Source: Schmidtea polychroa (Eukaryota). Taken from it: 64,000 bases of DNA. Each line of letters opens with the position of its first letter. Position 1 is the stretch's first letter. Under the pieces are notes generated by a model that was given only the letters and a program-made list of their open reading frames with translations, had not been told where the DNA came from and did no database searches. The stretch lies in NCBI GenBank assembly GCA_044892525.1, contig CM097885.1, forward strand, positions 23,934,001 through 23,998,000. Direction: 5' to 3'. Below, in pieces: positions 114 to 60,231 of the stretch. A program made the position numbers and the translations under genes.

Positions 114-168
114 TAGAACAATGTAGGTAAGGGAAGTCGGCAAATTAGATCCGTACCTTCGGTAAAAG
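114..168 (+). rRNA. ~55-bp fragment of eukaryotic 28S (LSU) rRNA, non-functional
   Basis: GAACAATGTAGGTAAGGGAAGTCGGCAAATTAGATCCGTACCTTCGG closely matches a conserved LSU rRNA segment; flanks are not rRNA-like. Confidence 0.8.
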
Positions 169-329
169 AAGTAATATTGCGGAATAATATCGCAATATTA
201 GACAATTAACCGAAAATTATGTATAAAAACATTCACATTTGGATATTATACTAATATATTATATTTATATTATATTATATTTTTATAAAGTTTCTATAAT
301 TAGCTTAGCAAATATTTAGCTAGAATCAA

Positions 330-1400
330 CGAAATCAAGAAACCTTATTTGAATAACCACCCAAAAGAATTGATTTAATAGGTACAAAGACAATCTTTCA
401 TGACAGCAGAAGCACATTATTCCCTGTGATTAGACAAAAGGATCAAACAATGAAACACTGGATAGAAACAACAGCATTACATTGAACAAATAATCGGTAA
501 CCGACCTCACAAATTGTCTATCTGAAGGTACAAAAGGATTACTTTCACTAGGACCAAAGTTCAGTATAAACAGAAAAATAGATGAAGCAGCCATCCTCAA
601 TTTCAAAACAGCTCTTTGTCGCATTGCGTACCAGATCAAATGGAACAATACAATATCTCATGAAAATGAAAATAGCGAAGAAAAGCTCCCAGTATACATA
701 AACGCAGATAAACTCTATCAACTAAATCCTGATGCAGAATTAGATTCAACACTCTCAAAGGTCTGTCACAAAATTATGGAGATAGTTGAGAAGGAAAAAA
801 GAAAACCATAACTCTCAAACCTATCGAAAGATGAACAAGCAATATTAAAATCCCTCGAAAAGAAACCATACGTTTACTTACCAAGTGACAAGGGGGAGAA
901 TTTTGCATTATAGAGAAGAATCGGTACTTTGAAGCTGGTTACGAACACCTCGGCAATATCGAAACATACAAGAAAGTCAGCCGCATGTCACCAAACAATA
1001 TCGAAATGAAGATCAACAAAGTATGGAAAGCCATAGCTTTGGAAATGAAGCTCAACAACAGAATAACCAACAGCTTCGTCACAAAAAATTCTGATCTTCC
1101 CAACTTCTACCACCTAATTAAAACTCACAAAGAGGATTCTGTTATCAAAAATAGGCCTATAGTGTTCAACAAAAATGGACCAACAACTAAAACAAGTTGG
1201 CTCCTTGCAAAGATCTTGAAACCTTTATTGGACCACACCATCTTTAAAGCAGCGACTGTCTCATGACAAGATTAAATAATAACAAAACTTCTCATAGAGA
1301 ATTCAAATACCCATTCAGTTTTGATGTCTTATCACTATACACATCTATCGAACCAAAAGAGGCTATTCAATGTTTAAAAAAGAAATTAAGAGAAAGAGCA
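330..1400 (+). pseudogene. Penelope-like retroelement, N-terminal/RT fragment, frameshifted
   Basis: Across frames: LLSLGPKF, YLPSDKG, LPNFYHLIKTHK..RPIV..GPT..SWLLAKILKPLL (ORF 985-1266), then FSFDVLSLYTSI (RT motif A). Confidence 0.8.
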
Positions 1401-1430
1401 ATTTCGATTGATTTAGTTTGAATTTTAATT

Positions 1431-1471
1431 CTACCTGAAGACCACAGTGATTTTGTCGAAATATATTGTAG
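1431..1471 (+). ncRNA. Minimal type I hammerhead ribozyme-like motif (Penelope pLTR type), degenerate
   Basis: CTAC-CTGAAGA-stem II-GAAA-TATATT-GTAG; stem I CTAC/GTAG, palindromic helix III ATATAT; stem II has mismatches. Confidence 0.65.
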
Positions 1472-1737
1472 TAAAATATATATATTAGATTTAGTGCTTT
1501 TCGTTATATCTAAATCAATGCCATTAAATAGTGATTGTTATAATAAATTTGAAAGTGACACTTTGTTTTTTTTGTATTACTCAATAGAAGCTCTTTGGAA
1601 TTGATGAAGAGATGTAGAATGTTAATGAAAGAATAACTATCAATGATTAAATTGGATATATGTGATAAAAATTATGAATTTAGTCTATTTCTGTTCTTGC
1701 TTAGAAGATGTTCAGATGTTGATTTTGAATTTCAATT

Positions 1738-1778
1738 CTTCCTGAAGATCACAGTGATTCTGTCGAAATATATTGTAG
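1738..1778 (+). ncRNA. Second hammerhead ribozyme-like motif, degenerate
   Basis: CTGAAGA-TC-ACAG tgatt CTGT-C-GAAA-TATATT-GTAG; near-copy of 1431-1471. Confidence 0.6.
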
Positions 1779-2244
1779 TAAAAAATACATAAATACAAGG
1801 AGCCCAAAAATTATTTCACGATTATAGAAGAGTTAGTTGATAAAATATTGGGACATGAATTAAACAAGGAAATATTAATAAATACTTGGAATTGTGACCT
1901 TATCTTTTAAATCTGATTAAAAACGATAATTTACAAGATGTTCTAGGAAATTCGAAAATGGTGACCAAATATATGATTTCTTTATAAAGAAGCTATTTCA
2001 GAACGATTACCATAAAGGATATGGTGTAGAGATATTCATTATAGAATGTGTTAATTATGAGGAAGAGAAAAGATTCTCAATGTTTTATCCAAAAATATTT
2101 TAAAAAAAAATTGAAATTAGTTTAAATAAAAAACTAAAGAAAAGATAAGTTTTTAGTGCTTAATTTATAAAATGAAATTTATGGAGTTATCTAATAATTT
2201 GCAAACCAATATTAATGTTTTAACGAATGAGAATCCTTATATAG

Positions 2245-4207
2245 CAACGGTGGGCAAATGCGGCTCTTAGAGCCGCATGCGGCTCATTGATAATTGAATT
2301 CTTGATAATCGAATTCGATTTTTTATTTTGAAATTTTTCACTAAATGTTTTGAGAAAAAATTTTTTGTTGCAATTGTATTTTCATAAATGTCAAAAAATA
2401 ACGAAACATTGTTTTTCACATTTTACTGCTTTTTAAAATTATTTTGTAGTAGGCGGCGCTTTGTTATAACAACGAGAGAGAAGCATCAAAAATAAATTTA
2501 GTGAATTTTGATTGGTTATTATTTTGTTTGTACAAGATTGCGGTCGTTTGTATATTTTAGTATAGTTTTCTATTCGTGTTTTTTGAAAAATTTGGTAAGA
2601 AGATTTTTTTATGAAGCATTTTAAAATTTTAAACTAACTAAATTAAATTAATGTCTTTTTATTATTTTGTTTAAATTTCAGCCATATAGTTATTTAAATT
2701 TATTATTATAATGACATCAGAAAACATCAAAAAACGAAAATACAGACAAGAAAATAGAACTTCTCAAGAAGAATGGACAGAAAAGTTTTTTTTATTGACA
2801 ATAATGGTAAATCGTTGTGTCTTATTTGTAAAGGTACAATTTCCAACTACAAAGTAACCAATTTACGTCGACACTATGAAGTAAGTCATCCACACTTATC
2901 AATTCAATATCCACTCAATTCAAACTTGCGGACAGAAAAACTTAAGTCATTGCAATCAGGGCTTCAAGCCCAACAAGGACTATTATCTACTTTTAGTCGA
3001 GAAGATGACAGTGCCAACGAAGCTAGTTTTTTGATAGCTTGGAATATAGCTCGTGCTAAACGTCCATATGGAGAAGGTGAATTTATTCAGAGAAACTTGG
3101 AAGAAGTGATTAAAGTTTTGGATCCGGACAACTCAAAACTACATAAATTGATCTCACGTATTCCTATTTCACGTCGTACAACTGAGCGTCGAATTGGCCA
3201 AATTAGCGAAAATGTTGAAAATAATTTGATGTGTGATTTAAAAAATTGTACAGCATTCAGTTTAGCTCTCGACGAGTCTACTGACATTCAGGATGTTCCA
3301 CAATTAGCCGTTTTTGTCCGCTTTGTATCTTCTGACGTAAAAGTGAAGGAAGAAATGTTAGACCTAGTAGCTCTTCTCGAAACAACTCGCGGTATCGATG
3401 TCAAAATTTAGTTTTGAAGCTAAACTTCGGCTTTTTGTGAACGATCTTAGGTCGAAAATATTTAATCATTTTCCACGAATAAAAGCTAATATAATTGATA
3501 TTACAGAAGAAAAAGTAAACGAATACAGTGAAAAATTGGAAGAATTGCAAGAATTGCAAGCGGATTTCAAATGTAGGTTTGAAGATTTGAAAAGTTATAA
3601 ATCTAAATTTGCATTTTTTGTGAACCCATTTATTTGTGATATTATTGAAGATGGATTTCCAATTTCTGAAGTAATACTTGTTAAAAAAGCGGTTGGGGAA
3701 TTGGAGTTATTAGATATGAAAGAGGACCAGGCTTTGCAAATGCACCATAAATCTACTTCTATAGTTGAATTTTGGAAACTCGTACCAGAGGCAAAATATC
3801 CACACTTAAAACAAGCTGTTTGCCGTCTAATTTCAATTTTTGGTACAACATATTGTTGTGAATCTTTGTACTCCACAATGAAGTTCGTAAAGTCGAAATA
3901 TCGTTCACAGTTGACCTATCAGCATCTTACAGAATTGCTGCGAACAGCTTTAACAAAGTATACACCAAATTTCAAAGATTTGACCAAAAGTCTTCGTTAA
4001 TTCAAGAAATTTTATTACTTTTTATTAATGGATTTTTATGTTTGTTACTTAATGTTTGAAATAATTATTTTGTTTTTTTTAATAGCGTTTAAGTCTCTTT
4101 AATCAAATTAATGAAATAAAAAAAAATATGTACTTTACTATGGTGGCTCTGTAAAAAATAAATTTTCGGAAAATGGCTCTTATTGAACCCATGCGTGCCC
4201 ACCCTTG
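2245..4207 (+). mobile_element. hAT DNA transposon (Buster/SPIN, GTF2IRD2-like), internally deleted
   Basis: 12-bp TIRs CAACGGTGGGCA / TGCCCACCCTTG (1 mismatch); 8-bp TSD TTATATAG at 2237-2244 and 4208-4215. Confidence 0.92.
2711..4000 (+). pseudogene. hAT transposase pseudogene
   Basis: ATG 2711 (MTSENIKKRK..EEW), frameshift in a T-run, CLIC..NLRRHY Zn finger, FSLALDESTD, then a jump to C-terminal FGTTYCCESLYSTMK..KSKYRSQL; the middle of the catalytic domain is missing. Confidence 0.88.
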
Positions 4208-4400
4208 TTATATAGTGTCAGCAGTTTACACCGATAAGATCACCAAAAGATTGTTGCCAAAGGTCGTTTGTTAAATTGATGACTCGGAGAAGTTCATTAG
4301 AAGATGCGAGATTTATTTCGATGATAAAGGTATAAAAAAGAAATAAAATGAACAGAAAAGATTCTCTGCATGCATGATTGACGAGGATCAATTGGAGAAG

Positions 4401-4848
4401 AAAAAGAAGAAGCAATATTTCTATCTTAATATCCCATTCATCAGTGACTTACTGGATTTCGAGATCTTTAAAGAACTTAAACGCATCGGTCGTTCGATTC
4501 AGATAGCACATAAATCTTGGACATTGAGTAAAACTCTGGCAAACAACACAAATAAAGAAAACAATTGCACAATGGAAAACTGCCAGACACCGAAAGATGT
4601 GTGCTTTAGAAAAAAACTATGTTTATTGCATCAAGTGCAATTTATGCAAGGAAATATACATTGTAAGTACACTCAGGAACTTGCACCAAAGAGTTAAAGA
4701 ACATCTAGATCCTGGTGGGAAATCTTCGGTGAACATACATCTCCAACATTGTCAACCAAAAAAAGAAAGAAAAAATATTTCAATCAAAATCGTAGCCAAT
4801 GGAAACAATCAAAAAAAGTGCTGGAACCTGACATTGTCGTCTGAATGA
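4401..4848 (+). pseudogene. Penelope-like GIY-YIG endonuclease fragment
   Basis: YLNIPFISD..; NYVYCIKCNLCKEIYIVSTLRNLHQRVKEH resembles the Penelope VY..C..C..YIG.T.R.L..R..EH pattern; frameshifted. Confidence 0.8.
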
Positions 4849-5047
4849 AAGACGAAATAATCATAAGAGATATTATGAGGAAGTTTTATGATGAAGAAAT
4901 TTTTAAATATAAAATTTTAAAAATAAAATTTTAGATTAATTTTTAAAAAAATAATAAAAAGATATTTTAATTAAAAATATCTTCGTAGAAAATTTTTTTA
5001 AATAAGAAAGTTTAAAGAAGATACTGATATTTACTGAAATAAAATTT

Positions 5048-5398
5048 ATGGAAACAAACACTGATTTTAATGTTTTACAGGATGAACATCCTAATATGGT
5101 GGCAGCGGTAAACACTGACGCAATCACCGAAAGATTGCTACCAAAGGTATTCTGCCAAGGTGACGACTTGGAAAAGTTCATTAAAAGATGCGAAATTTAT
5201 TTCGACGCCAAGGGAATCACGCAGAAGAAAGATCATGAAAGATTAACATCTTGCATGATTGATGAGGATCTCCTGGAAGTGTACGCCAAAACACTGAAAA
5301 AAGCCGAAGGATTCCAGGCTAGGTTGCGATTGGCATTCGATCGCGAAACAGATGTTTTAAAGGATCTACTTTGTTTTTGCACATTTTTCTTTAATTAA
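5048..5398 (+). pseudogene. gag-like N-terminal ORF, 3'-truncated (probable LTR retrotransposon origin)
   Basis: LLPKVFCQGDDLEKFIKRCEIYFDAKGI; ~9 related copies in the window; loses homology to the longer copy after DVLKD. Confidence 0.5.
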
Positions 5399-6646
5399 TA
5401 TCTCAATTACTCCACAATGACCTTCCTGATAAATATTCGTTATTTCAAACATCAATGGTTATTTTACATCATAACCCGAATAGAATTTCATTAAACTCTG
5501 TTACAAAAATATTTTCCTTCCATTTCTGGTATTTTCTGTTATATTCTCTTTGTCATTCAATGTAAAACATTCAGAACTGAACTCGAAATCTTTTCTGAAT
5601 CAAAACATTTATTTGGTTTTTGGATTAGTTTATATATTATATAATTTAGATAAATTTAAACAAATTAATTATTAACTTAAATGATATTCAAATTTATAAT
5701 ATTTTCCAAAAAAATATATAAAATTTATAAAGTTTAAAAATAAATTGTAAAAAAATTTTATTCTTTTGAAATATTTGGTCGCAAATATCAGAATATGACA
5801 AATTTTGTTTTTTTAAAATATATTTTTATACTAAATTCACTTTTTCTTATTTATAATACAACACCAATTATATCTAAATTACTAATAAATTATTTTTTAA
5901 ACGCTTTATTAAACTTAATATTAAATATGTATTTAATAATTTATAGCATAAGCAAAATAAATAATTTTAAATGACTATTAAAATAAAAATAATAATATTT
6001 TACAATTTAAAAATTATTATTTATTTTAAATAATATTTAATTTTATTGATATATATTTTAAATAAATTATCATTTTAAAATTCTTTGACTTAAACGACGA
6101 GTGTTCATTAAAAATATTTTTTTACAAAGTTTATTTCAATACAAATTTAATAAATTATTTTAAAATCTTTATATATTTCAAATTTTAAAAATATTGAAAA
6201 ATATATTGTTCGATTTTAAAAATTTATATATAATTTTTTTCTGATTTCAGGTGTCTTTAAAAAAATTAACAATTACAACTTTCAACATGTTATATGAAAA
6301 ATTGTATTTTAAAATACGGAAATGTTTAAACATGCTTTACACAAACTTTAATTTAAAGCTTCACAAACTCGTTAAATATTAAATTGTATTCTCAAGTTAT
6401 AAAAATTTATCTAATTCCCCAAAATATTAATTTCAAATTTTCATTACAATAACCTATAAACGGCATTCATTGGCTTTCCTAATTTATATTTTAAAATATT
6501 TATATTAAATAAAAAAGAAAATAAGTCAATTAAATACACATGATTAATCATTTAAAATTTCTGTTAATATTAAAATTAATAAAAAGCGCAATTGACTGGA
6601 TTTTATTTAATGTCCATTTAGTCATTATCAATTGCGCTTTGGTTTA

Positions 6647-7540
6647 CACCAAACACCACTGAGAACCGTTTCCTATAATATAACAAAAAAATCAATAATC
6701 TTACATTATAGAAACATACATACTTACTTTGATTTCACGCTGATGTTCTAATTTATAGCTCAGTGAGATACATCTTATATTATAGAAAACTGTAAAGTGG
6801 AAGGAAAATTAAAAACTGCACACAAACGCAACACATACTAAAAAGCACATACAAATTTTTGATTCGTATAAATGTAACGATGAGATACGTTTCTATAATA
6901 AACTTTATTTTTGACAATTTTTAGAAAAAAAAGATCGTTGAAAATTTTTAAAATTATATTTTTAATGAAAATATTAAGAGCAGATGAATTTGGTTCAATA
7001 TCATTTCAATCCAGATTTGATTTCCTGAAAGAAGCTCCTCATATTGAGCTCAGAAAAAAAATTACAAAAATTATTTTAATCATCGATTTTCCCCAAAATG
7101 TTTTAAAAAAATAAATATTTTAGGTGATTGATTTATTTATTTCATTAACTATAATTAAAAATATATCGGACTCACATTTTTTTGAAATAATTCTAAAATA
7201 AATAGAGCTAAATATCATAAAATTCCTAGAAACCCTGAAAATTAATTAAAATAATATATAATTATACTGTTGATTAAAAGTAATATTTAAGAACTTGAAT
7301 AATGATCTCATATCTCATATGGATCAGAATTCAAGTCTTAAAATTTACTTTAAATAGAAAAAATTACTTGAAAGCCATTTGTAAAATGGCTAAAATAAAT
7401 TTCCAAAATATATAAATGAGACATGATAAATTGATAAAGATGATTTACAATTACAACCAATTACAATTGGTAAATAAATTGGTGAGTGAATTTACACGCC
7501 AACCACCACTATAGAGAACGTATCTCTGTGGTGTTTGGTG
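6647..7540. mobile_element. MITE / non-autonomous TIR element with TA flanks
   Basis: TA-CACCAAACACCACTGAGA...TCTCTGTGGTGTTTGGTG-TA; imperfect TIR of ~30 bp; no convincing ORF. Confidence 0.7.
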
Positions 7541-8317
7541 TATATGTGCTGTATTTGTGTGTTAATTTTATTTTTCTACCACTTTCTCACCTTCTATATA
7601 AATGATTTTATTCATTAAAACATTAAAATTTAAAGCGCAGGTAAGTTTGTGTGTTTCCATAATACAGTCAGTCTATTGAATTTCTTTGTATAATATAACT
7701 TCTTATATATTGAAAGTAAATAAAAGAAAGAATTTTAAATTTATTATGACAAAGTTTGAATAATTGCAAGCTGTTGAGAAATGAAATTTTTTATGAAATA
7801 ATTTTGTAAGATAATTTTAAATAGAAAGTTTTATGAAATAATTTTCAAAGGCAAAATTTAATACAAATTTTTATTAAATTAATTTCAAAGATCGATTTCA
7901 ATTAATTTCTTCTACTAAAAATATTAGTAAACAAGGGTTATATTTGGTAAATAAGTAAATGAAGGGCTAAATTTTAAAAACTAGTAATAAACTTTAAAAG
8001 ATAATGAGAATAATTTAATTTTAAGTAAATTAAGAGTCTAAAAATTGATCAAATTAAATTATGGGCTTTTATTTTTAAAAAAAAGTAATTATTGTTCAAA
8101 GATTTTAAAAATTTAAGTAATATTTTTAAATTAAGTAAAATAAATAAAAATTTTAAATTAAAGTAAATTTTTAAATAAGTTAATTAAAGTAATAATTTTA
8201 ATTTTATAATCAAAAAGTTTGAATGATAGGCAGCTTTTGAGAAATGAAAATCTTTAATGAAAGTTTTTATGAAATAATTTTTAAAGAAAATTTAGATGCA
8301 AATTTCGCAAGTAATAA

Positions 8318-8318
8318 T

Positions 8319-8383
<65 letters not shown>
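8318..8383. repeat. (AAT)n microsatellite; shorter in the copies near 28780, 49170 and 63500
   Basis: Directly visible. Confidence 0.95.
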
Positions 8384-8384
<1 letters not shown>

Positions 8385-8569
8385 TCAATCAAATACTTAA
8401 CAACTAAAGACTTTATTAACAACACATAAAAAATAACTATAATAATAAATAAAAATTAACAAGACAGTGATAAAGATACGAAATTTATTCATCACCAAAT
8501 ATTTGCTTATAAGAAGCTTTTCCTAATTCAGGAAGAAGAATATTTCTTAAATTCTTGTCAAAATCTAAA

Positions 8570-8905
8570 ATTCAACCAGATACCTACAACCAAAATACTA
8601 ACAAATATGTACTATCTAGGTATTATTTACATTCAGATAATAAATACCAACTATCAGCTGCTAAGGATTTTTAACTAGGTACTAACAAATAAGTACCAAA
8701 TACTTACAACTAAGAACTTACAACCAGATAGCTGCTACCATGTATTAACAACCAACAAACAACTAGCTACTAACAGATTAGTTTCAAAGATTATTTACTA
8801 ACAATCAACAACAACCAACTAACTAGGTACCAGATACCAAATACTAAGTAACTCTCAAAAAACCAGATACTAAAGACTTACAACCAGGTATTTACAATCA
8901 ACTAA
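8570..8905. repeat. Degenerate CA-rich minisatellite, ~14-bp period (ACAACCAGATACCT-like)
   Basis: Recurring caaccagatac/caactaag/aactaggtac words; also near 29000, 49400 and 63730. Confidence 0.6.
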
Positions 8906-14135: not shown

Positions 14136-14218
14136 AAAAAAAAACTAACCTCAGATGTGATTTGAACCGCTATCCATTTGAACCACGGTGCCGGTCTAGC
14201 CCACTGCGCTATCTAGGA
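14136..14218 (-). ncRNA. tRNA-like Pol III unit 1
   Basis: Minus strand: A-box TAGCGCAGTGG, B-box GGTTCAAATC, downstream T9. Confidence 0.5.
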
Positions 14219-14626: not shown

Positions 14627-14707
14627 AAAAAAAATGACCGAAATGGGATTTGAACCCATTGGTATTGGCAATGCAGTCGAGTGCTATTACCACTAAGCTA
14701 TACTCAA
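14627..14707 (-). ncRNA. tRNA-like (tRNA-Cys-like 5' half) Pol III unit 2
   Basis: Minus strand GTATAGCTTAGTGGTAATAGCACTCGACTGCA..AATGGG TTCAAAT CCCATT..T8; D-arm and T-arm pair, acceptor and anticodon stems do not. Confidence 0.6.
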
Positions 14708-14998: not shown

Positions 14999-16285
14999 AT
15001 GAATAATATAAAAATTCAAGAAATAAATTAATTAAATCTTGATTATAATAAAGAATTTACTCATGAAATCAAGAAAAACGATGTACTTAAAATCTCCCCA
15101 ACTTCAGGATCTATTGCAAACTTAAATCGTAGGGGTGATATAGTTTTTCAATCTCTTCAAACATCAAACCCTATAGATATTTGTAATGCCAAATTATATT
15201 ATAAAATCGAATTAGAAATTGAAGCAAACAAAGATATAACCCTAGAAAATAATTTCTTTCCAAATTTATTCTCCAACATGAGATTAAAACTAGGATCATC
15301 AGAAATTGAAACTGTTTTGCATCCGGGAGTATATTCTACAATGTTAAATTTTATTTTGACTGGTTGTGATTATAAAAATGAATATGGTGAATTAACAGGT
15401 TGGATTCCTGATGTTAATAAAGGGGATTTAGATAAAGATGGTTTAGATGTAAACCATGGTTACTATAAAAGAGCTGAACTTTATAAATCTAAAAAATTTG
15501 AAGGTTATTTTGAATTAAAACACTTGTTTGGATTCATTCAAAACTATAATCGTATACTTCATAATGTTTTTATAGAATTAGTTTGTAATAGAGTAGAAGG
15601 TGATAAAAAATTGTTCTATGGAGATAAGGATACAACAGCTAAATTAAAAATATCAACACTTGAATTGCATATACCTGAATGGACATTAAATCCACATTCT
15701 GAGATTAAACTCCTTGAAAGATTAAATTCCAACAAGTCTATAAATGTAAATTATTTAAATAGAATCTGTAGTGAATTTAGTATGACAGAGGGTTCAACAT
15801 ATTCTATAAAGGTAGCAAATTTAGCATACCGACCAAGATATATCTTGATTGGATTCAAAGAAGTAGATTCATCTTTCCAAAAAAATAACAACTTGTTTAT
15901 TCAAAAGATTGGAGTTGATAATTTAAAAACAATCCAAATTCAATTAAATAGTTCTTATTATCCAATAAATAGAATGGAATTTAATATTGAAAATAATGAA
16001 AACATATTCCCATATCTAAATTATATTGAAACATGTTATGATTTCAAAGTTGAACCGCAATTAAGTTTAGAAGATTTCAAAAATTTATATTCTATATTTT
16101 GAATAAATGTTTCAGACCAAGATGATCGCCTAGCCATAAATAATGTTGATGTTACACTTCATGTAACAAAGGATTCTAATTTTAAAGCTAAAGTATATAC
16201 ATTAATATTAGAAGAAAAGAAAATAGAAATGAAATTATATGGTGGAAAGATTTCAATAATCGAAAATGTTAGGGGAGATTCTTGA
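14999..16285 (+). pseudogene. Polinton major capsid protein (double jelly-roll type), ~428 codons with two in-frame stops
   Basis: One frame from ATG 14999; TAA at codon 11 and TGA at 16100; motifs ENNFFPNLF, LKHLFGF, RPRYILIGF, IQLNSSYYP, YSIF*INVSDQ. Confidence 0.8.
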
Positions 16286-16315: not shown

Positions 16316-17659
16316 ATGTCTCTCTATTGGAGATGTGAAAGTTGTAATTGTCAAGTTACAAGACATCATAAAGCAAGTCATCTAAAAACTAAAAAACATA
16401 TAGGAGGCGATCTACAATCTTCAAAAGTGACATCTTCAATATTAAAACCTTTTACTACAGAAAAATATCCAGGTGAAAGACATTTATTTAAACACAACTA
16501 TACCGGACCAGGAACAAGATTAGATTTTAGATTAGATGAAAATAATAATCCCAAACAAGGAGAAGAACCAATAAATAGAATTGATCAAGCAGCTTTAAAA
16601 CATGATATTGCATACAATTCAGAAGATCTTAGAGATAGACATGTTGCAGATGTTAATTTAATACATGATTTAAATAGTATCCAAAATCCATCAACCCAAA
16701 AAAAGATTCAAAGAGCTCTAGTTAAATTAGCAATGAAAGGTAAGATTTTCATAGGTGCTAGTTTACCAAGGATGGCAAAAGATGTTGCTAATAAAAAGAT
16801 TATTGAACAAGCAGATGCTGAAAGATCCCTCGAGAATATATCCAAGACTAGTTTATTAACCCCAACAGAATCACAAATAAAATATGCCAACGAATTACAC
16901 CATGAATTTAGAAAAAATAAAAAATATTTAAAAGTTCAAGTACATGAAAAAGATCAAACATGGTCTGCAGATTTAGTCTTTATGCCAACCAAATCATCAG
17001 ACCCTGAAAAATATAAAATAATTTTAACAGTAATAGATTTATATACAAGATTTGCCTTTGCAAGGTGTTTAGAAAATAAAACAGGATATTCTATTACAGA
17101 AGCATTTGAAAATATATTTGAACAACATCAAAGAATTCCAAAATATTTATGGTGTGATAAAGGAACAGAATTTTATAACAAAGTTTTACAAAGTTTTTAA
17201 ATGAAAATGATATTAAATTATATTCAACAGAAAACAGTCGTAGTTGAAAGATTAAATAGAACATTAAAAAATAAAATGTGGAAATATTTTACGGCTATTG
17301 GAAAACAAAAATGGAACAATGAATTGTTACAAAAGATTGTAAATGAATATAATAATGATGTACATAGTTCTATAAAATCAACACCTTTAAATGCTACCAT
17401 AAATCCTGAAACCATTAAAGTAGTAAATATTGAAAATGATGTTATTGAAAAACCAAAGTTTAAAATTGGTGACCGAGTAAGAATATTTAAATATAAAAAT
17501 AAATTTGAAAAAGGATTCACAGCAAAATGGACAAATGAAATTTTTATTATAAATAAAATAAATTATACAACTCCAATAACATATAGCATCATTGATTTAA
17601 ATAATGAAAAAATATTAGGTAGATTTTATAATAATGAGTTACAGAAAACAGATTTCTAA
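16316..17659 (+). pseudogene. Zn-finger + parvovirus-type PLA2 + retroviral-like integrase fusion, disrupted near 17195-17235
   Basis: CESC..HLKTKKH; HNYTGPGT..IDQAALKHDIAY; WSADL, VIDLYTRF, WCDKGTEF, VVERLNRTLK, KFKIGDRVRI..FEKGF..W. Confidence 0.9.
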
Positions 17660-18444
17660 AATAATTTTTTCCATATTTCAGCTTCTTCTCTATCCAAATA
17701 AATATAATTATATTTTTCTCTCCAATGATTATCAACAAACATATCAAACATATTCTTATCAGGTTCAACATTTGAAAATAAATCATTATAAATCATATTC
17801 TTATCACGGCGATCTAATTTAAAAAATATAAAACAATTAGAATTATTTCTTATAGAGTTTTTATCTAAAGCATAATAAGTTTGAGATATATAAATAACAT
17901 TACAATTATTATGTCTTCCTCTTGTAAAGTAACTCTTTTGAATCTCTTGATTTTTCATATTAACAACATCATCAAATATAACTAGATTCTTTTTATCTTT
18001 AGGAAGTAAATCACAATGTAAAACATCTTCAGGTTTATTAGAGAATAAAACTTGAATCCCCTGCCCCTCTTCACAAATATAATCATTTTTATTACTAATA
18101 TCTGATTCTAAAATCTTTTCCTTATACCAATCAACCATATCACAAGGTTGAAAAACTTCTTCAGGACATCTATGTTGATTTTTAAAAATATCAATTATTG
18201 CTTTTTTAGTTAATTTATTTTCAAAGCCACATTTCAAAAGTTGTAATTCTGGTTGATTTATAGTTGTAGAATAAAAGATTAAATTATTATAATCTAAAAA
18301 ACCATCTTCAAGCAACATTTTCAAAACAAGTACATTCTTTCCACATCCAGAAGAACCAACAATTAATAATCTAAAATTATCAGGAAATACTTTATTATTA
18401 AATTTAGATTTATGTCTATTTAAAATTGGTTTCCAAATATCCAT
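17656..18444 (-). CDS. Polinton packaging ATPase (A32/FtsK-like)
   Basis: Walker A GSSGCGKN, Walker B LVIFDD, FTRGRHNN, YISQ. Confidence 0.9.
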   Translation of the reverse strand: MDIWKPILNRHKSKFNNKVFPDNFRLLIVGSSGCGKNVLVLKMLLEDGFLDYNNLIFYSTTINQPELQLLKCGFENKLTKKAIIDIFKNQHRCPEEVFQPCDMVDWYKEKILESDISNKNDYICEEGQGIQVLFSNKPEDVLHCDLLPKDKKNLVIFDDVVNMKNQEIQKSYFTRGRHNNCNVIYISQTYYALDKNSIRNNSNCFIFFKLDRRDKNMIYNDLFSNVEPDKNMFDMFVDNHWREKYNYIYLDREEAEIWKKLF

Positions 18445-18459
18445 TTTATTTATTTAAAA

Positions 18460-19062
18460 ATGACAACTGAAGAATCTTTGCAAGAATTAATAAATTCAAA
18501 TAAAAATAAATCAGTAGTAATTGATGGTAAAAAATATTTTATTGGAAAACATGTAAAAGAACAAGTTAAAGAACGTATGTCTTCGACTAAAGAGGGTGGT
18601 ATTCTTCCATTAGCTGCTTTAATACCTGCAATCATTGCCGGACTATCAGGTGCTGCTGGAATAGCTGGAGGAATTGCAACTACAGTTCAAAAAGCTAAAG
18701 AATCTCAAGAGACAGACCTAGAAAAAGAAAAATTACAAACTGAAATCGATTCAATAAAAAAGAAGGGAGTGTCCCAAGGTCAAAAGTCCGTTGGAAAAGG
18801 TCTCTATCTTAATCCATATCAGAAAGTGTCCGAAGGTCAAAAGTCTCAGGGGAGTTCCTCCGTTGGAAAGGGTCTCTATCTTGATCCTTAAAAAGGCCGC
18901 GGTTTAAATGATTTTTTAAAAAATCAAATTTCATCATCTGAATCTTTATCTTCAAAAGATAAAGATGATTTTAAAAAAATGTGTAAATCTTTAAAGAATG
19001 GATGCCTTTGTAAAACTAAAAATGGTAAAGGATTATATTTAAAACCTTGGAAGGAACCATGA
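18460..19062 (+). pseudogene. Adenovirus pX-like virion core precursor, one in-frame stop at 18889
   Basis: GGILPLAALIPAIIAGLSGAAGIAGGIA; three GKGLYLxP repeats, the third lying past the TAA in the same frame. Confidence 0.65.
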
Positions 19063-19985: not shown

Positions 19986-20450
19986 ATGACTAATCCTTCA
20001 ATATTAGATTTTTTAAAAACATTTGGAATAAATGCAAAAACAAATTTTGATTTAAAAGATTATGCAAATTATTTAAATTTAAAAATAAAAATATTAATGA
20101 ATGATGAATTATCAAGTCTGAAAGATATTCTGAAAGAAGACACTCAAAAGAAACGAAGTCCCCTGAATATTATTATAAATTATAAAAATTCAAATGAGAA
20201 AGGATCTCATTGGGTTTGTATATATAATAAATCTATATACTTTGATTCTTTTGGGATTAAACCTACTAAAGAAGTTGAAGACTATCTGTCGAGGGGCTAT
20301 ACTTTTAACTCTTTACAAGTTCAACCCAATAATACTAAAATATGTGGTATTATAAGTTTATATGTTTTGTATAGATTGAATAAATCCAAAGGAGAAGGTT
20401 TCACTTCCTTAATCCAAGAAATTTATAATGATTTAAAATCTCTATTATGA
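19986..20450 (+). CDS. Adenain-like cysteine maturation protease
   Basis: GSHWVC, YFDSFG, QVQ..TKICG (His/Asp/Gln/Cys). Confidence 0.9.
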   Translation: MTNPSILDFLKTFGINAKTNFDLKDYANYLNLKIKILMNDELSSLKDILKEDTQKKRSPLNIIINYKNSNEKGSHWVCIYNKSIYFDSFGIKPTKEVEDYLSRGYTFNSLQVQPNNTKICGIISLYVLYRLNKSKGEGFTSLIQEIYNDLKSLL

Positions 20451-21217
20451 AAATGGAGCTTCGCAACCTTCCGGAAGATAATTTTAAAAAAATGGTAAAC
20501 ATAATGTCAGATAAATATTCAAGAACTTTATCTATAAATTCAAAAGAATCAGACTTTACTATAAACTTTCAAGATTCAATAAAATTAGATCAAGATTTAA
20601 ATTATGAATTAGGTCTATTATGGTTTTGTGCTTATAATACTATTTTTAATATAACTAAAGATAATAACATATTTTATTATATAAGCCCAAAATCTACAGA
20701 TAAGATTATAATAACAATCGAACCTGGGGCTTATGAGATAAAAGATTTAAATAATATACTTTCTAAAAGAACAAATGGAGCCATTACAATTAAAATGGAT
20801 TTACCAACTTCAAAATGTATAATGACTTTAGAGAATATAGGAATTCATTTTCAAAATAATAGTTTCTTTAGAACAATTTTAGGATTTACACGAAACCATT
20901 ATATCACACCTATAGTTGAGAATATAACATCAGAAAATATTATAAAAATAATAAATACAAACACAATAAATATTCATTGTGATTGTATAACAGGTTCTTA
21001 TAATAATGGTAAACAAACAAATGTTTTATATTCCTTTCCCTCAAACACAGTTCCTATGGGATATAAAATAGTTGAAAGAATGAATCCTCCAAATTATTTG
21101 CCTTTATGTAGAAAATATATAATGGATATTAATTTTAAAATTCTTAACCAAGAAGGAGAATTGATTGATTTTAATGGAGAAGAGATTTCAATGTATTTAC
21201 ATCTGAAACAGGTTTGA
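20447..21217 (+). CDS. Polinton minor capsid (penton-like) protein
   Basis: INIHCDCITGSYNNG..VLYSF..GYKIVE..YLPL..NQEGELIDFNGE..LHLK. Confidence 0.8.
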   Translation: MKMELRNLPEDNFKKMVNIMSDKYSRTLSINSKESDFTINFQDSIKLDQDLNYELGLLWFCAYNTIFNITKDNNIFYYISPKSTDKIIITIEPGAYEIKDLNNILSKRTNGAITIKMDLPTSKCIMTLENIGIHFQNNSFFRTILGFTRNHYITPIVENITSENIIKIINTNTINIHCDCITGSYNNGKQTNVLYSFPSNTVPMGYKIVERMNPPNYLPLCRKYIMDINFKILNQEGELIDFNGEEISMYLHLKQV

Positions 21218-22962: not shown

Positions 22963-24340
22963 TCAGTTATGGTTGAAAGCCAACCTATGAATCATTAATT
23001 TATGATCTTTAAATTCTTTATCACTTAGACCTTTTATATATTCAGAATCAGTATTAAAATATTTAAGTTCTAAACATATAGGATTAAAAACTTGAGAATA
23101 TAAAGGCTTCTCGATTTCTCTCTCGGGATAAATAATTTCAACATTATAAATATCAAGATCGGTAATATTTGTATCATATAACTTATTCAACTTTTCTAGA
23201 TTTTTTATTATCGGTATTAAATTATTTCCAATAGGTAGAGTTGTCTTTAAATCACTTAGGATGAATCTTTTATCATCATAATTTGATAATGATACTTTTT
23301 GAGATTCTATCAAGTGAATATCATGGTTTTCACTTTTAAGTTGATGTATTTCATCAATTTTATCTTTATGATTTGGATTCAATGTATCTATATAATCTTG
23401 ATGAGAAAGATTCTTTGCAACGGATTTCTGTATTCCTTTACATCTGTTATCCTTTACAGGTTTTTCTTCTTGTCCCTCTGGTCCTTTAGGAAATATAGGA
23501 TATCTATGTGTAATGGTTTCTTCTGTTTCTGGAGTTTTAAATATAAATGATCTAGTTATAAATTTAGGATTTGTAAATGTTTTGTATGAATATTGTTTAG
23601 CACGAAAAAATATTCCATTTTCTATAGGAGTAAAAGGTTTTCCATCTTTAAACGAAAATAATTCTCCAGATGAATTTATTAAATTTGAAAGTATAGGATT
23701 TTCGGCTATATCTCTTTGTAAATCATGCATTCTTATTGTTAAAAACATTGAATCTGTATCCATTGCATGCATTGATATATTAGAACCATATATAGGTTGT
23801 AAGATGTTATAATATGTTTCATACATTTGTAATTTTGAAAGTTCTAAAATTGAAAACCCTATAAATATTGGTTTGTTGTATGTTTTCTCAAAATTCTTTA
23901 GTTCTATTGCAGTAAGATTTTCAGAAAATACTTGTGCGTTTTTAAATGTAGGCTTTCCTAGCATACGATTATAACGCTTAATATCTTTGGTAGTATTTGT
24001 TAGGAGTTCAATATGAGTATATTTATCAACATTCTCCATTGTCTTCCCAAAGACTGAATTGTTTAAAAGTTTATAATTATTATTTTTAAAAAGGTTACCT
24101 TCTCTTTTTGCAATGTTTCGACATCTAATGTTCTCCTCGATAAAAGCTTTCATGAATGGCCTCTGTTTAAATCTTATGACACTATGAACTTTTTTTAATA
24201 TCATACCTCGTGAAAGATAAAATTGGAGGAGTCTATAGTGACAAAGATAAAACCTTCGATCTGTTTGATCACAAAGAAGTTTCATTGTTGGGGGTTTATC
24301 TTGTGAGATTTGCCATTCAGAAAGTTCGTTGATATCAATC
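22963..24340 (-). pseudogene. Protein-primed family B DNA polymerase, C-terminal part only
   Basis: KLLNNSVFGKTMEN (motif B), KPIFIGFSILELSK, MDTDS (motif C), RAKQYSY, CKGI, DDKR; motif A and exonuclease absent. Confidence 0.92.
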
Positions 24341-36712: not shown

Positions 36713-38056
36713 ATGTCTCTCTATTGGAGATGTGAAAGTTGTAATTGTCAAGTTACAAGACATCATAAAGCAAGTCATCTAAAAACTAAAAAACATATAG
36801 GAGGCGATCTACAATCTTCAAAAGTGACATCTTCAATATTAAAACCTTTTACTACAGAAAAATATCCAGGTGAAAGACATTTATTTAAACACAACTATAC
36901 CGGACCAGGAACAAGATTAGATTTTAGATTAGATGAAAATAATAATCCCAAACAAGGAGAAGAACCAATAAATAGAATTGATCAAGCAGCTTTAAAACAT
37001 GATATTGCATACAATTCAGAAGATCTTAGAGATAGACATGTTGCAGATGTTAATTTAATACATGATTTAAATAGTATCCAAAATCCATCAACCCAAAAAA
37101 AGATTCAAAGAGCTCTAGTTAAATTAGCAATGAAAGGTAAGATTTTCATAGGTGCTAGTTTACCAAGGATGGCAAAAGATGTTGCTAATAAAAAGATTAT
37201 TGAACAAGCAGATGCTGAAAGATCCCTCGAGAATATATCCAAGACTAGTTTATTAACCCCAACAGAATCACAAATAAAATATGCCAACGAATTACACCAT
37301 GAATTTAGAAAAAATAAAAAATATTTAAAAGTTCAAGTACATGAAAAAGATCAAACATGGTCTGCAGATTTAGTCTTTATGCCAACCAAATCATCAGACC
37401 CTGAAAAATATAAAATAATTTTAACTGTAATAGATTTATATACAAGATTTGCCTTTGCAAGGTGTTTAGAAAATAAAACAGGATATTCTATTACAGAAGC
37501 ATTTGAAAATATATTTGAAGAACATCAAAGAATTCCAAAATATTTATGGTGTGATAAAGGAACAGAATTTTATAACAAAGTTTTACAAAGTTTTTAAATG
37601 AAAATGATATTAAATTATATTCAACAGAAAACAGTCGTAGTTGAAAGATTAAATAGAACATTAAAAAATAAAATGTGGAAATATTTTACGGCTATTGGAA
37701 AACAAAAATGGAACAATGAATTGTTACAAAAGATTGTAAATGAATATAATAATGATGTACATAGTTCTATAAAATCAACACCTTTAAATGCTACCATAAA
37801 TCCTGAAACCATTAAAGTAGTAAATATTGAAAATGATGTTATTGAAAAACCAAAGTTTAAAATTGGTGACCGAGTAAGAATATTTAAATATAAAAATAAA
37901 TTTGAAAAAGGATTCACAGCAAAATGGACAAATGAAATTTTTATTATAAATAAAATAAATTATACAACTCCAATAACATATAGCATCATTGATTTAAATA
38001 ATGAAAAAATATTAGGTAGATTTTATAATAATGAGTTACAGAAAACAGATTTCTAA
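36713..38056 (+). pseudogene. ZnF-PLA2-integrase fusion (copy 2), same lesion
   Basis: As copy 1. Confidence 0.9.
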
Positions 38057-52432: not shown

Positions 52433-53759
52433 CAGGGTTTCCAAAAAGGTTTCATCCTTTTCCAGAAAAGTTTCATATTTTTCCACAAAATTTCAACCTC
52501 AAATGTAGAAATATTAATATTAATGAAAAATCAAAGATAAAATCAATGTTATTTTATGAATTCTTTAAATTTCCCGCCATTTTTGAGGATATAATAAAGC
52601 ATATTTAAGCCCCAATGGCACCAAGAACAAGACTCACTGACCATCTCAGAGAACTTATATGCGGCAAATACAATGCCTTAAAACCGATTGTTAAAATTGC
52701 CGAAGAGTTGGAATTGAATGTTAAAACGGTTACAGCAGTCATTAAAATATATAAAGAAACTGGAAGAATAAAATCCGCAATCAAAAAATGCGGGAGAAAG
52801 AAGAAAATAACGCCGGAGCAGGTTGATTTTATAAAAAACGAAATCAACGAGGAAGTTTCAATAACTTTAAACACCTTGAAATCCAAAATACTAGAAAAAT
52901 TCAACGTTTCGTTATCAAAAAGTACAATATCCAACGCAATTGAAGCTTTCCATTATAGCTTTAAGAGAGTTACATTGGTTCCTATGGCACGAAACACGAC
53001 TGAGAATAAAGCAAAACGTTTTCAATACGCGTATGATTTTACCCAAATATCGCATGAGAGTTTCATATTTTTGGATGAATGTGGAATTAGCTGCAGCTTA
53101 CGCCGATCTTATGGCAGATGTTTGAGGGGAACTTCCCCAAGAAAACTGTCAGAGCTATCAGAAGCCAAAATATTTCAATATCCGCCGCAATCACTCAGAA
53201 TGGTATTTATTTTTTCGAATACAGTTTTTCAGCTTACAACGGTGAAAAATATGGACTATTTATTGCTAATTTGTGAGAAGTTGAGATTTGAAGGAATTAC
53301 GAACCGGTGTTTTGTGATGGATAATGTTCCTTTCCACAAAATGATAGCCATAAGAGAATTGATCAATAGCGAAGGGCATAGTGTATTATTCTTGCCGCCT
53401 TATAGCCCGCAACTAAATCTAATTGAGAATTTATTCTCGAAGTGGAAAGGTCTGATCAAAGATGCAAACTGTGATACCAAAGAACAACTTTTGGATGCGA
53501 TTCGATCAGCCAGCAGTTTAATTACGGAAGAGGATTGCGAAGGCTACTTTTCTAACATGCTTTCGTTTATTGGGAAAGCTTTTGCTGATGAAGATTTTTA
53601 AATAATTACCTTAATCGTGTACTTCCTTTTTAATTTATTTTAATATTTGTCGATGAAACGTTTTTAAAAAAGGATGAAACTTTTTTGGAAAAGGATGAAA
53701 CTTTTTTGGAAAAGGATGAAACTTTTCTGGAAAAGGATGAAACTTTTTTGGAAACCCTG
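52433..53759 (+). mobile_element. Tc1/mariner-IS630 DNA transposon, full length
   Basis: TA-CAGGGTTTCCAAAAAGGTTTCATCC...GGATGAAACTTTTTTGGAAACCCTG-TA; absent from the homologous sites at ~11280 and ~31720. Confidence 0.95.
52615..53601 (+). CDS. DD34E transposase, probably carrying an internal out-of-frame segment
   Basis: HTH-like N-terminus, FLDECG, VMDN, LPPYSPQLNLIE; 34 residues between the second D and the E. Confidence 0.88.
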   Translation: MAPRTRLTDHLRELICGKYNALKPIVKIAEELELNVKTVTAVIKIYKETGRIKSAIKKCGRKKKITPEQVDFIKNEINEEVSITLNTLKSKILEKFNVSLSKSTISNAIEAFHYSFKRVTLVPMARNTTENKAKRFQYAYDFTQISHESFIFLDECGISCSLRRSYGRCLRGTSPRKLSELSEAKIFQYPPQSLRMVFIFSNTVFQLTTVKNMDYLLLICEKLRFEGITNRCFVMDNVPFHKMIAIRELINSEGHSVLFLPPYSPQLNLIENLFSKWKGLIKDANCDTKEQLLDAIRSASSLITEEDCEGYFSNMLSFIGKAFADEDF

Positions 53760-55350: not shown

Positions 55351-55529
55351 AATAAGTTGAGAAAGAAGTAATATTGCGGAATAATATCGCAATATTAGAC
55401 AATTAACCGAAAATTATGTATAAAAACATCCACATTTGGATATTATACTAATATATTATTTTTATATTATATTATTTTTTTATAAAGTTTCTATAATTAG
55501 CTTAGCAAATATTTAGCTAGAATCAACGA

Positions 55530-56570
55530 AATCAAGAAACCTTCTTTGAAAAACCACCCAAAAGAATTGATTTAATAGGTACAAAGACAATCTTTCATGA
55601 CAGCAGAAGCACATTATTCCCTGTGATTAGACAAAAGAATCAAACAAAGAAACACTGGATGGAAACGACAGCATTACATTGAACAAAAAATCGGTAACCG
55701 ACCTCACAAATTGTCTATCCGAAAAATTGTCTATTATAAACAGCAAAATAGATGAAGCAGCCATCCTCAATTTCAAAACAGCTCTTTGTCGCATTGCGTA
55801 CCAGATCAAATGGATCAATACAATACCTCATGAAAATGAAAATAGCGAACAAAAGCTCCCAGTATACATAAATGCAGATAAACTCTATCAACTAAATCCT
55901 GATGCAGAATTAGATTCAACACTCTCAAAGGTCTGTCACAAAATTATGGAGATAGTTGAGAAGGAAAAAAGAAAACCATAACTCTCAAACCTATCAAAGA
56001 TGAACAAGCAATATTAAAATTCCTCGAAAAGAAACCATACGTTTACTTACCAAGTGACAAGGGGGAGAATTTTGCATTATAGAGTAGAATCGGTACTGTG
56101 AAGCTAGTTACGAACACCTCGGCAATATCGAAACATACAAGAAAGTCAGCCGCATGTCACCAAACAATATCGAAATGAAGATCAACAAAGTATGGAAAGC
56201 CATAGCTTTGGAAATGAAGCTCAACAACAGAATAACCAACAGCTTCGTCACAAAAAATTCTGATCTTCCCAACTTCTACCACCTAATTAAAACTCACAAA
56301 GAGGATTCCGTTATCAAAAATAGGCCTATAGTGTTCAACAAAAATGGACCAACAACTAAAACAAGTTGGCTCCTTGCAAAGATCTTGAAACCTTTATTGG
56401 ACCACACCATCTTTAAAGCAGCGACTGCCTCATGACAAGATTAAATAATAACAAAACTTCTCATAGAGAATTCAAATACCCATTCAGTCTTGATGTCTTA
56501 TCACTATACACATCTATCGAACCAAAAGAGGCTATTCAATGTTTAAAAAAGAAATTAAGAGAAAGAGCAA
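55530..56570 (+). pseudogene. Penelope-like RT fragment (copy)
   Basis: Copy of 330-1400. Confidence 0.8.
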
Positions 56571-56599
56571 TTTCGATTGATTTAGTTTGAATTTTAATT

Positions 56600-56640
56600 C
56601 TACCTGAAGACCACAGTGATTTTGTCGAAATATATTGTAG
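56600..56640 (+). ncRNA. Hammerhead-like motif (copy)
   Basis: Identical to 1431-1471. Confidence 0.65.
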
Positions 56641-56906
56641 TAAAATATATATATTAGATTTAGTGCTTTTCGTTATATCTAAATCAATGCCATTAAATAG
56701 TGATTGTTATAATAAATTTGAAAGTGACACTTTGTTTTATTTCTATTACTCAATAGAAGCTCTTTGGAATTGATGAAGAGATGTAGAATGTTAATGAAAG
56801 AATAACTATCAATGATTAAATTGGATATATGTGATTAAAATTATGAATTTAGTCTATTTCTGTTCTTGCTTAGAAGATGTTCAGATGTTGATTTTGAATT
56901 TCAATT

Positions 56907-56947
56907 CTTCCTGAAGATCACAGTGATTCTGTCGAAATATATTGTAG
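56907..56947 (+). ncRNA. Hammerhead-like motif (copy)
   Basis: Identical to 1738-1778. Confidence 0.6.
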
Positions 56948-57413
56948 TAAAAAATACATAAATACAAGGAGCCCAAAAATTATTTGACGATTATAGAAGA
57001 GTTAGTTGATAAAATATTGGGACATGAATTAAACAAGGAAATATTAATAAATACTTGGAATTGTGACCTTATCTTTTGAATCTGATTAAAAACGATAATT
57101 TACAAGATGTTCTAGGAAATTCGAAAATGGTGACCAAATATATGATTTCTTTATAAAGAAGCTATTTCAGAACGATTACCATAAAGGATATGGTGTAGAG
57201 ATATTCATTATAGAATGTGTTAATTATGAGGAAGAGAAAAGATTCTCAATGTTTTATCCAAAAATATTTTAAAAAAAGATTGAAATTAGTTTAAATAAAA
57301 AACTAAAGAAAAGATAAGTTTTTAGTGCTTAATTTATAAAATGAAATTTATGGAGTTATCTAATAATTTGCAAACCAATATTAATGTTTTAACGAATGAG
57401 AATCCTTATATAG

Positions 57414-59381: not shown

Positions 59382-59574
59382 TTATATAGTGTCAGCAGTT
59401 TACACCGATAAGATCACCAAAAGATTGTTGCCAAAGGTCGTTTGTTAAATTGATGACTCGGAGAAGTTCATTAGAAGATGCGAGATTTATTTCGATGATA
59501 AAGGTATAAAAAAGAAATAAAATGAACAGAAAAGATTCTCTGCATGCATGATTGACGAGGATCAATTGGAGAAG

Positions 59575-60022
59575 AAAAAGAAGAAGCAATATTTCTATCT
59601 TAATATCCCATTCATCAGTGACTTACTGGATTTCGAGATCTTTAAAGAACTTAAACGCATCGGTCGTTCGATTCAGATAGCACATAAATCTTGGACATTG
59701 AGTAAAACTCTGGCAAACAACACAAATAAAGAAAACAATTGCACAATGGAAAACTGCCAGACACCGAAAGATATGTGCTTTAGAAAAAAACTATGTTTAT
59801 TGCATCACGTGCAATTTATGCAAGGAAATATACATTGTAAGTACACTCAGGACCTTGCACCAAAGAGTTAAAGAACATCTAGATCCTGGTGGGAAATCTT
59901 CGGTGAACATACATCTCCAACATTGTCAACCAAAAAAAGAAAGAAAAAATATTTCAATCAAAATCGTAGCCAATGGAAACAATCAAAAAAAGTGCTGGAA
60001 CCTGACATTGTCGTCTGAATGA
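59575..60022 (+). pseudogene. Penelope GIY-YIG fragment (copy)
   Basis: Copy of 4401-4848. Confidence 0.8.
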
Positions 60023-60231
60023 AAGACTTAATAATCATAAGAGATATTATGAGGAAGTTTTATGATGAAGAAATTTTTAAATATAAAATTTTAAAAATAA
60101 AATTTTAGATTAATTTTTAAAAAAATAATAAAAAGATATTTTAATTAAAAATATCTTCGTAGAAAATTTGTTTAAATAAGAAAGTTTAAAGAAGATATAA
60201 TTTGATACTGATATTTACTGAAATAAAATTT

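Follow-up and report, generated by a model that had tools for sequence, protein, structure and literature searches.

The window analysed here, a stretch of 64,000 nucleotides, holds at 16316-17659 a gene in which a parvoviral-type PLA2 domain is joined in frame to the integrase of a Polinton. The locus raises the question of whether this join is native to the element or an accident of its decay and, if native, why an integrase should be made behind a lipase.

The PLA2-integrase gene of this copy

The gene and its duplicate comprise the following features.

16316-17200, plus strand: ORF 1 (294 aa), containing the finger, the PLA2 domain, a linker and the beginning of the integrase core, up to a premature stop
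16334-16399, plus strand: C2H2-type finger, C-x2-C-x11-H-x5-H, read from the translation
16403-16411, plus strand: GG↓D candidate protease site 5' of the PLA2 (arrow, predicted cut), from the alignment
16409-16756, plus strand: parvoviral-type PLA2 domain (PF08398 at residues 56-137, E 3e-9)
16499-16513, 16601-16606 and 16649-16651, plus strand: PLA2 motifs, namely the Ca loop YTGPG, His-Asp and the second Asp
16742-16762, plus strand: junction motif K-x-x-x-G-x-G, a candidate protease site separating the PLA2 from the integrase; degenerate here, with one glycine
16886-17659, plus strand: retroviral-type integrase without C-terminal chromodomain (PF00665 at residues 210-294, E 1e-8)
16970-16972, 17156-17158 and 17246-17248, plus strand: integrase residues Asp, Asp and Glu, the last in ORF 17201-17659
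36713-38056, plus strand: second copy of the broken gene, within a 20.4-kb tandem duplication

The original prediction described a single ORF running from a CxxC..HxxxxxH finger through an apparently intact PLA2 into the integrase core. The finger is indeed present in the translation, as C7-x2-C10-x11-H22-x5-H28; it has no Pfam match at 16334-16399, and the corresponding region is a hairpin plus helix in the predicted structure of P0001, a database homologue. The PLA2 likewise bears out its description, with YTGPG, D90, H96-D97-x-x-Y100 and the downstream D112 all in place. PLA2 and integrase share one frame with no stop between the domains, as had been read, but the gene is not one ORF. A TAA at 17198-17200 in the integrase core falls after the second catalytic Asp (D281) and before the catalytic Glu, leaving the remainder as ORF 17201-17659; this stop had been overlooked, as had the -1 arrangement of sister lineages.

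P0001 (463 aa) is open and aligns with the window over its full length at 87.9% identity, with 16 gap positions. The family is highly abundant, with 17,873 and 2,030 contigs in two sequencing runs, and its copies were judged from the contigs of such runs: in four of four runs, an indel sets family contigs (41, 8, 1 and 1) apart from the window where the out-of-frame stretch begins. Since P0001 is open from end to end and the contigs differ in this way, the integrase break belongs, as judged from these alignments, to this copy and to its duplicate at 36713-38056, where 2 of 1344 bases are changed and the stop is identical.

The PLA2 profile matches AAV VP1 at E 5e-6, and the modelled PLA2 domain (pLDDT 88) finds its best structural match in rice PLA2 (2wg7; Z 8.0, rmsd 3.5, 86 residues aligned), with the next unrelated fold at Z 6.4 and bee-venom PLA2 at 5.5, middling Z values being common among helical bundles. 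For the integrase model, the best Foldseek match is foamy virus integrase (E 5e-14). The PF00385 chromodomain found in P0068 and L036 is missing from the ends of both P0001 and the window ORF; the window integrase thus falls outside the definition of adintovirus integrase in the accessible text of PMC11071296, of which a C-terminal chromodomain is part.

We rejected the finger as the zinc domain of the integrase itself: the finger precedes the PLA2, and elsewhere DUF5679 or nothing stands in its place. Its pattern occurs in 7 of 100 fused proteins, the others having DUF5679 or nothing, and by this distribution the finger is an accessory confined to the sub-branch of the window. No other PLA2 was found in the window's element.

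Some side observations concern the copies of this gene. The junction linker (16742-16765) differs among family copies, a longer in-frame version agreeing with P0373; a group I intron was rejected as the source of the extra junction letters in some copies, as these fit the longer in-frame linker of P0373. In runs X17 and X20 (organism B), contigs switch to unrelated sequence at 16508, inside the Ca-loop codons. Some presumed RNA runs have contigs over parts of the gene; these were not counted as evidence.

The surrounding element

Around 16316-17659 lies a Polinton element, in AT-rich surroundings within a repeat-rich genome, as seen in the 64-kb window. Its further genes are as follows.

15032-16285, plus strand: double jelly-roll major capsid gene, broken (PF21738, E 6e-19)
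17656-18444, minus strand: A32-type packaging ATPase (PF04665, E 6e-8)
18460-18891, plus strand: pX-like core protein as its own gene, with four GG/GxG sites (PF05829, E 0.009, below the curated cut-off)
19986-20450, plus strand: adenain-type cysteine protease, from ESM Atlas features (0.95-0.97) and motif only
20447-21217, plus strand: likely minor capsid (penton) gene, its homologues adjoining capsid and protease genes in related loci
22963-24285, minus strand: protein-primed DNA polymerase, C-terminal part (PF03175, E 1e-7)

Capsid, ATPase, pX-like protein, protease, likely penton and polymerase thus make up a Polinton gene set. The hallmarks of such elements are represented by the protein-primed DNA polymerase B (its C-terminal part only), the retroviral-type DDE integrase (broken here), the jelly-roll major capsid (PF21738), the packaging ATPase (PF04665) and the cysteine protease. 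The protease at 19986-20450 has no match in Pfam, NCBIfam or, by sequence, the PDB, and the ESM Atlas clusters that it matched have PF00770 on 19-62% of their members. The 20447-21217 product is without a family match, and the penton label is one that we presume for it.

The element is a decayed Polinton provirus, tandemly duplicated. We call it decayed because the capsid gene has a premature stop at 16100-16102, the integrase is broken, the polymerase is cut near 24340 and no ends were found. The 5' part of the capsid gene is, moreover, not in one frame with a start codon; the right end of the element is interrupted at about 24340 by another repeat, and no terminal inverted repeats flank it among the 25 longest inverted repeats in the window. 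The tandem segmental duplication of 20.4 kb (6741-31145 versus 27202-51529, 98.7% identical) holds both truncated Polinton copies, which are 99.6% identical over the element, and could be either real or a feature of the assembly. A third, partial repeat pairs 165-8846 with 55362-64000. Elsewhere in the window, minus-strand stretches at 14140-14200 and 14630-14700 bear some resemblance to tRNAs, ARAGORN finding no tRNA in the 64 kb, and the ORFs at 52615-53601, 57945-59172, 2758-4000 and 430-1266 carry what we take to be resemblances to a Tc1/mariner-type transposase, pieces of a hAT-type transposase and LINE reverse-transcriptase fragments.

Recurrence of the fusion among relatives

A profile scan had been proposed as the check on whether the fusion recurs, and it does: both Pfam domains are present in 51 of 98 homologues and, with custom profiles, PLA2 and integrase are found together in 100 of 245 retrieved proteins, some of them truncated so that only the last PLA2 helix is left. 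The PLA2 start and the integrase core are both covered in 73 fused proteins, which group into 59 clusters at 70% identity, 37 at 60% and 23 at 50% (median identity 39.9%). By pattern, every one of the 73 has His-Asp-x-x-aromatic, 65 have the Ca loop and 61 the complete set of three DDE motifs; across 43 selected alignment rows, the PLA2 and DDE residues are invariant. Homologues with names come from a limpet and a coral and, with the repeats of the window, suggest an animal host. Seven fetched loci contain the fusion: in L001, L027, L030, L037, L041 and L051 it lies beside capsid, ATPase or protease genes, and in L031 no other Polinton gene was found. Open relatives keep both domains in one frame, rather than as the separate genes that had been named beforehand as the observation that would tell against the original prediction; the fusion is therefore not a post-insertion stop-loss.

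In an integrase tree of 339 rows, built without two duplicate loci, most of the near-copies in L134-L170 and rows that cover <200 profile positions, P0001 sits within a 54-row branch (support 97) that contains 48 fused proteins. A larger branch of 162 rows (support 94) takes in 78 of the 81 fused rows and 5 of the 6 frameshift rows described below, and the elements with a separate PLA2X are its sister (support 99). On this FastTree tree, the fused label needs six changes. Many integrases inside the 162-row clade begin at their own Met, without a PLA2, and L018 has a fused-type PLA2 with no integrase found in the locus; the link between the two domains is therefore not obligatory. No PLA2 is present in 159 of 196 loci, a count that is not a frequency, as the loci were chosen by integrase motifs and many are short. 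PLA2 genes that end near the glycine motif, integrase not found, were noted at L018:9872-10471, L107:7947-8531, L025:1009-1602 and L112:6241-6819.

Viral contigs scanned by single protein with the window ORF and the L036 integrase gave no matches, and a search for longer fused forms of P0001 returned only four partial matches, which is weak evidence. As a lead only, one automatically generated ESM Atlas cluster (88 members, score 0.78) already bears the name of the PLA2-integrase pair. Polinton-type integrases also turn up on contigs filed as bacterial or archaeal MAGs (L118-L196), many from one assembly; these are probably eukaryotic-virus contamination.

Overall, the distribution of the fused sequences indicates that the fusion is native to the family across a large Polinton clade, and we regard it as genuine and conserved, an architecture that seems not to have been described before, although the kind of element is known.

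The junction and its glycine motif

The PLA2 ends in GG or GxG in 81 of the 89 fused proteins with a full junction, compared with 6 of 445 windows of equal length taken from the integrase body, and in 77 of these 81 a Lys stands four residues before the glycine motif. The remaining 8 of the 89 lack it, and the window copy is degenerate, reading KIFIGAS with one glycine only; G-x-G is kept in P0001 and P0373. A GG↓D pattern marks the PLA2 start in 41 of 100 fused proteins. Elsewhere in the window's element, GG/GxG sites occur in pX, two unassigned proteins and the protease tail, and none were found in the remaining capsid, penton or polymerase frames. The mavirus protease cleaves GG↓X and GY↓G (GX↓G), the integrase is present in mavirus virions and adenain-type proteases act in particle maturation, according to the accessible text of PMC6048507; our literature search found no Polinton virion proteome.

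The same motif also terminates stand-alone PLA2s, and because of this it may be a structural cap, and the fusion is not what gave rise to it. The linker from PLA2 to integrase ranges from 3 to 245 residues, and the two-domain model of P0001 (mean pLDDT 81.6, pTM 0.51) is confident inside the domains and not globally.

A predicted frameshift form in sister loci

Six distinct loci encode PLA2 and integrase in two overlapping ORFs, with the integrase always in the -1 frame; two further contigs start within the PLA2 end. In all six, the heptamer A_AAA_AAC lies in register directly after the glycine motif, and the integrase is without its own Met. Counted over 152 distinct integrase ORFs with a full N-terminus (Met-less meaning no Met before the first Asp), the heptamer is in register in 6 of 10 Met-less ORFs and in 1 of 142 with a Met (Fisher p 9e-8, the loci not being independent); L104, L133 and L167, Met-less without the heptamer, were counted as misses. 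Five of the six loci form one clade, 61-73% identical, and L049 is 43-46% identical to them.

A strong hairpin lies 5-7 nt 3' of the heptamer in L034, L035, L036 and L049 (best z -2.7 to -5.6), albeit in the 70-nt window only for L034; L032 and L033 have the heptamer, a stop directly after it and a hairpin that is not significant (z -0.3 to -1.3). A 12-bp stem common to three loci keeps its pairing through one two-sided and four one-sided changes. Rfam gave no match on 13 loci, and a DNA-pattern scan for more frameshift sites in 120 loci found none with a PLA2 or integrase match.

A footprint of the heptamer is visible in proteins. A PLA2 profile built mostly from the frameshift loci has 3875 protein matches, and the glycine motif is present in 118 of the best 120. 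Among these 118 stand-alone PLA2s, in a count of proteins only from a set biased towards the query, 113 carry in their short tail Lys-Asn, the zero-frame product of A_AAA_AAC; shuffled tails give a mean of 52 and a maximum of 68, and fused proteins 3 of 59. The residue before Lys-Asn is always S, T, P, A or L, each of which has codons ending in A, and 85 of 119 stand-alone tails resemble the zero frame of an integrase start. We infer that the sister loci would produce mostly free PLA2 and a minority of PLA2-integrase through programmed -1 ribosomal frameshifting.

The in-frame fusion of L031 retains the heptamer, with one hairpin arm lost, suggesting that a frameshift form gave way to a fusion at least once. 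At L031:99-1652, the PLA2 end is duplicated, and L031 may be a recombinant, as its PLA2 and integrase fall in different parts of two trees.

Several other overlaps were set aside. L020 and L108 were rejected as frameshift examples, the overlap being -1 but the heptamer not in register, and may be errors or decay. P0390 was rejected as a natural in-frame form of the frameshift type: the middle of its integrase core is missing, and it may be an assembly product. At the end of PLA2X (minus strand) in L002-L008, the reading frame continues into the protease in L003 and L005, and the two genes overlap at long A runs in others, by -1 in L002, L004 and L008 and by +1 in L007; these joins reflect either frameshifting or homopolymer error. 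At L028:4458-4520, seven consecutive A mark a -1 overlap between a pX-like ORF and a protease-integrase ORF, the hairpin not being significant.

The protease as a possible second carrier

The integrase is fused in frame behind the protease in six further cases (L009, L028, L039, P0113, P0128 and P0155, the last representing 49 member sequences), with glycine motifs in the linker. The three found in DNA loci are as follows.

L009:2740-4248: protease-integrase fusion
L028:4458-5957: protease-integrase fusion
L039:274-1803: protease-integrase fusion

These fusions occur in at least two parts of the integrase tree. The common theme would thus be an integrase placed behind an expected virion protein, rather than a special partnership with a lipase, and the fusion to a protease in other relatives points to packaging as the reason for fusion.

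Relation to known systems

Stand-alone PLA2s in Polintons are already published (PMC8502044, PMC5803895 and PMC3671162, each in its accessible part). The PLA2X of Alpha (Mayetiola-class) adintoviruses (PMC8502044) and the 'CAP' of Spodoptera Mavericks (PMC5803895), for both of which a membrane role at entry is proposed, share with the window PLA2 the catalytic motifs and the closing K-x-x-x-G-x-G, as far as the accessible parts of these papers show. There, however, PLA2 and integrase are encoded apart and the pX-like domain forms the tail of the PLA2, whereas the window has pX as a gene of its own and a PLA2 that continues into the integrase; the window gene, not being a stand-alone PLA2 with a C-terminal pX-like domain, lies outside the PLA2X class. 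The PLA2 of the parvovirus VP1 unique region (PF08398) shares the Ca loop and His-Asp motifs, but is joined to a capsid protein rather than to an integrase.

Retroviruses and LTR retrotransposons make their integrase as the tail of a particle protein (Gag-Pol), from which a protease releases it, and A_AAA_AAC followed by a hairpin is the signal class of MMTV and HTLV. The likeness extends to the integrase fold, the heptamer and hairpin of the sister elements, and the predicted release by protease. In contrast to the Gag-Pol systems, a Polinton is a DNA virus that lacks reverse transcriptase and has a jelly-roll capsid, its carrier is a lipase or a protease rather than the capsid, and its protease is a cysteine protease. 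Mavirus parallels what is predicted for the fused Polintons in its virion integrase and its GG↓X and GX↓G cutting, and its predicted hydrolase MV13 is processed in the particle; its integrase (MV02) and hydrolase, however, are separate gene products (PMC6048507, accessible text).

Software has predicted -1 frameshifts for adintovirus Penton and Hexon-Adenain (PMC11071296): the virus group is the same and the genes are others, and the accessible text does not mention frameshifting between PLA2 and integrase. Neither the fusion nor its frameshift was found in the openly accessible literature searched. The accessible parts of PMC8502044, PMC3671162, PMC5803895, 10.64898/2026.06.19.733378, PMC11071296 and PMC6048507, and likewise of 10.1101/2023.08.22.554363, PMC11161782, PMC11296320, PMC11131425, PMC12220804 and PMC7805220, contain no mention of either. 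We therefore take the -1 overlap of PLA2 and integrase at A_AAA_AAC in sister elements to be new here.

Proposed mechanism and alternatives

The reading that we favour, and consider probable, is a Gag-Pol-like packaging of the integrase on a virion protein, followed by its proteolytic release. The PLA2-integrase chain would enter the virion via its virion partner, and the element's protease would cut it during maturation at the glycine motif that closes the PLA2; the free PLA2 would then breach the membrane for escape, and the freed integrase would insert the DNA in the next cell. In the frameshift lineages, PLA2 alone and the minority PLA2-integrase product would correspond to retroviral Gag and Gag-Pol, and the window's lineage would be a fixed in-frame version of this strategy. 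Whether the Polinton clade as such independently reached the Gag-Pol solution (a tail integrase, rationed by frameshifting in more than a hundred relatives or held in frame as in the window, carried by the particle and released by protease) seems to us evenly balanced.

The original prediction saw a polyprotein that would be split by the protease and would link membrane breach to integration. Of this, the split is supported by the protease-type motif at the join, a candidate site; the functional link finds no backing. Were the protein to stay whole, PLA2 and DNA-bound integrase would act as one chain and couple membrane breach to genome delivery. Such an account would fit the 8 of 89 fused proteins and the window copy that are without GG/GxG at the join, and a motif that may be structural, given that stand-alone PLA2s also end in it. 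It is hard to reconcile with a linker of anywhere from 3 to 245 residues, with glycine motifs that bracket the PLA2 on both ends and with an integrase joined to the protease in other lineages; moreover, the structure prediction that had been proposed as a check gave for P0001 a two-domain model of low global confidence (pTM 0.51 against a mean pLDDT of 81.6). We hold a functional whole chain to be distinctly unlikely. Fusion and frameshift may, alternatively, only couple and ration expression, the chain being cut in the producing cell and the integrase left unpackaged. Related integrases work from their own Met, so that fusion is unnecessary for function, and IS3-family transposases use -1 frameshifting without a particle. 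Nevertheless, PLA2 and protease, the two partners seen, would both be expected in the virion, the mavirus integrase is packaged and adenain-type proteases act at particle maturation (PMC6048507, accessible text), and an effect on expression alone appears unlikely.

The remaining alternatives concern whether the sequences are what they seem. The sister overlap could stem from a polymerase slipping along the A run, from initiation at a non-AUG codon or from an error of assembly, so that only the in-frame fusion is real: the metagenomic contigs are short and A-rich, L020 and L108 resemble single-base errors, the PLA2X-protease joins of L002-L008 vary in frame at long A runs, and two of the heptamer loci are without a strong hairpin. 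An origin of this kind is nonetheless very unlikely in view of an overlap that is always -1, with the same heptamer in register in six loci down to 43% identity, a covarying hairpin 5-7 nt downstream and the Lys-Asn footprint in 113 of 118 relatives (among the best 120 of 3875 matches). That the fusion itself is a decay accident of this copy, by stop-loss or deletion after insertion, is scarcely credible: the integrase, capsid and polymerase genes are all broken here, but the same join occurs in at least 23 groups below 50% identity, 48 fused proteins share the window's 54-row branch (support 97), and recurrence in open relatives refutes such an origin.

For annotation, the frameshift form means split or truncated integrases in the output of gene callers, and Met-less ORFs of this kind are not pseudogenes. 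For the biology of the elements, the proposed packaging of the integrase on a virion protein bears on the long-open question of whether animal Polintons make infectious particles and by what route their integrase reaches a new nucleus; no virions have been observed, according to the accessible text of 10.64898/2026.06.19.733378. The lipase-integrase chain, the protease-type join, the two carriers and the frameshift form together offer genetic evidence for an integrase destined to be carried by the particle, and the frameshift and protease-fused forms turn a curious fusion into a testable model of Polinton integrase delivery. If the model is true, these elements would integrate straight from the infecting particle.
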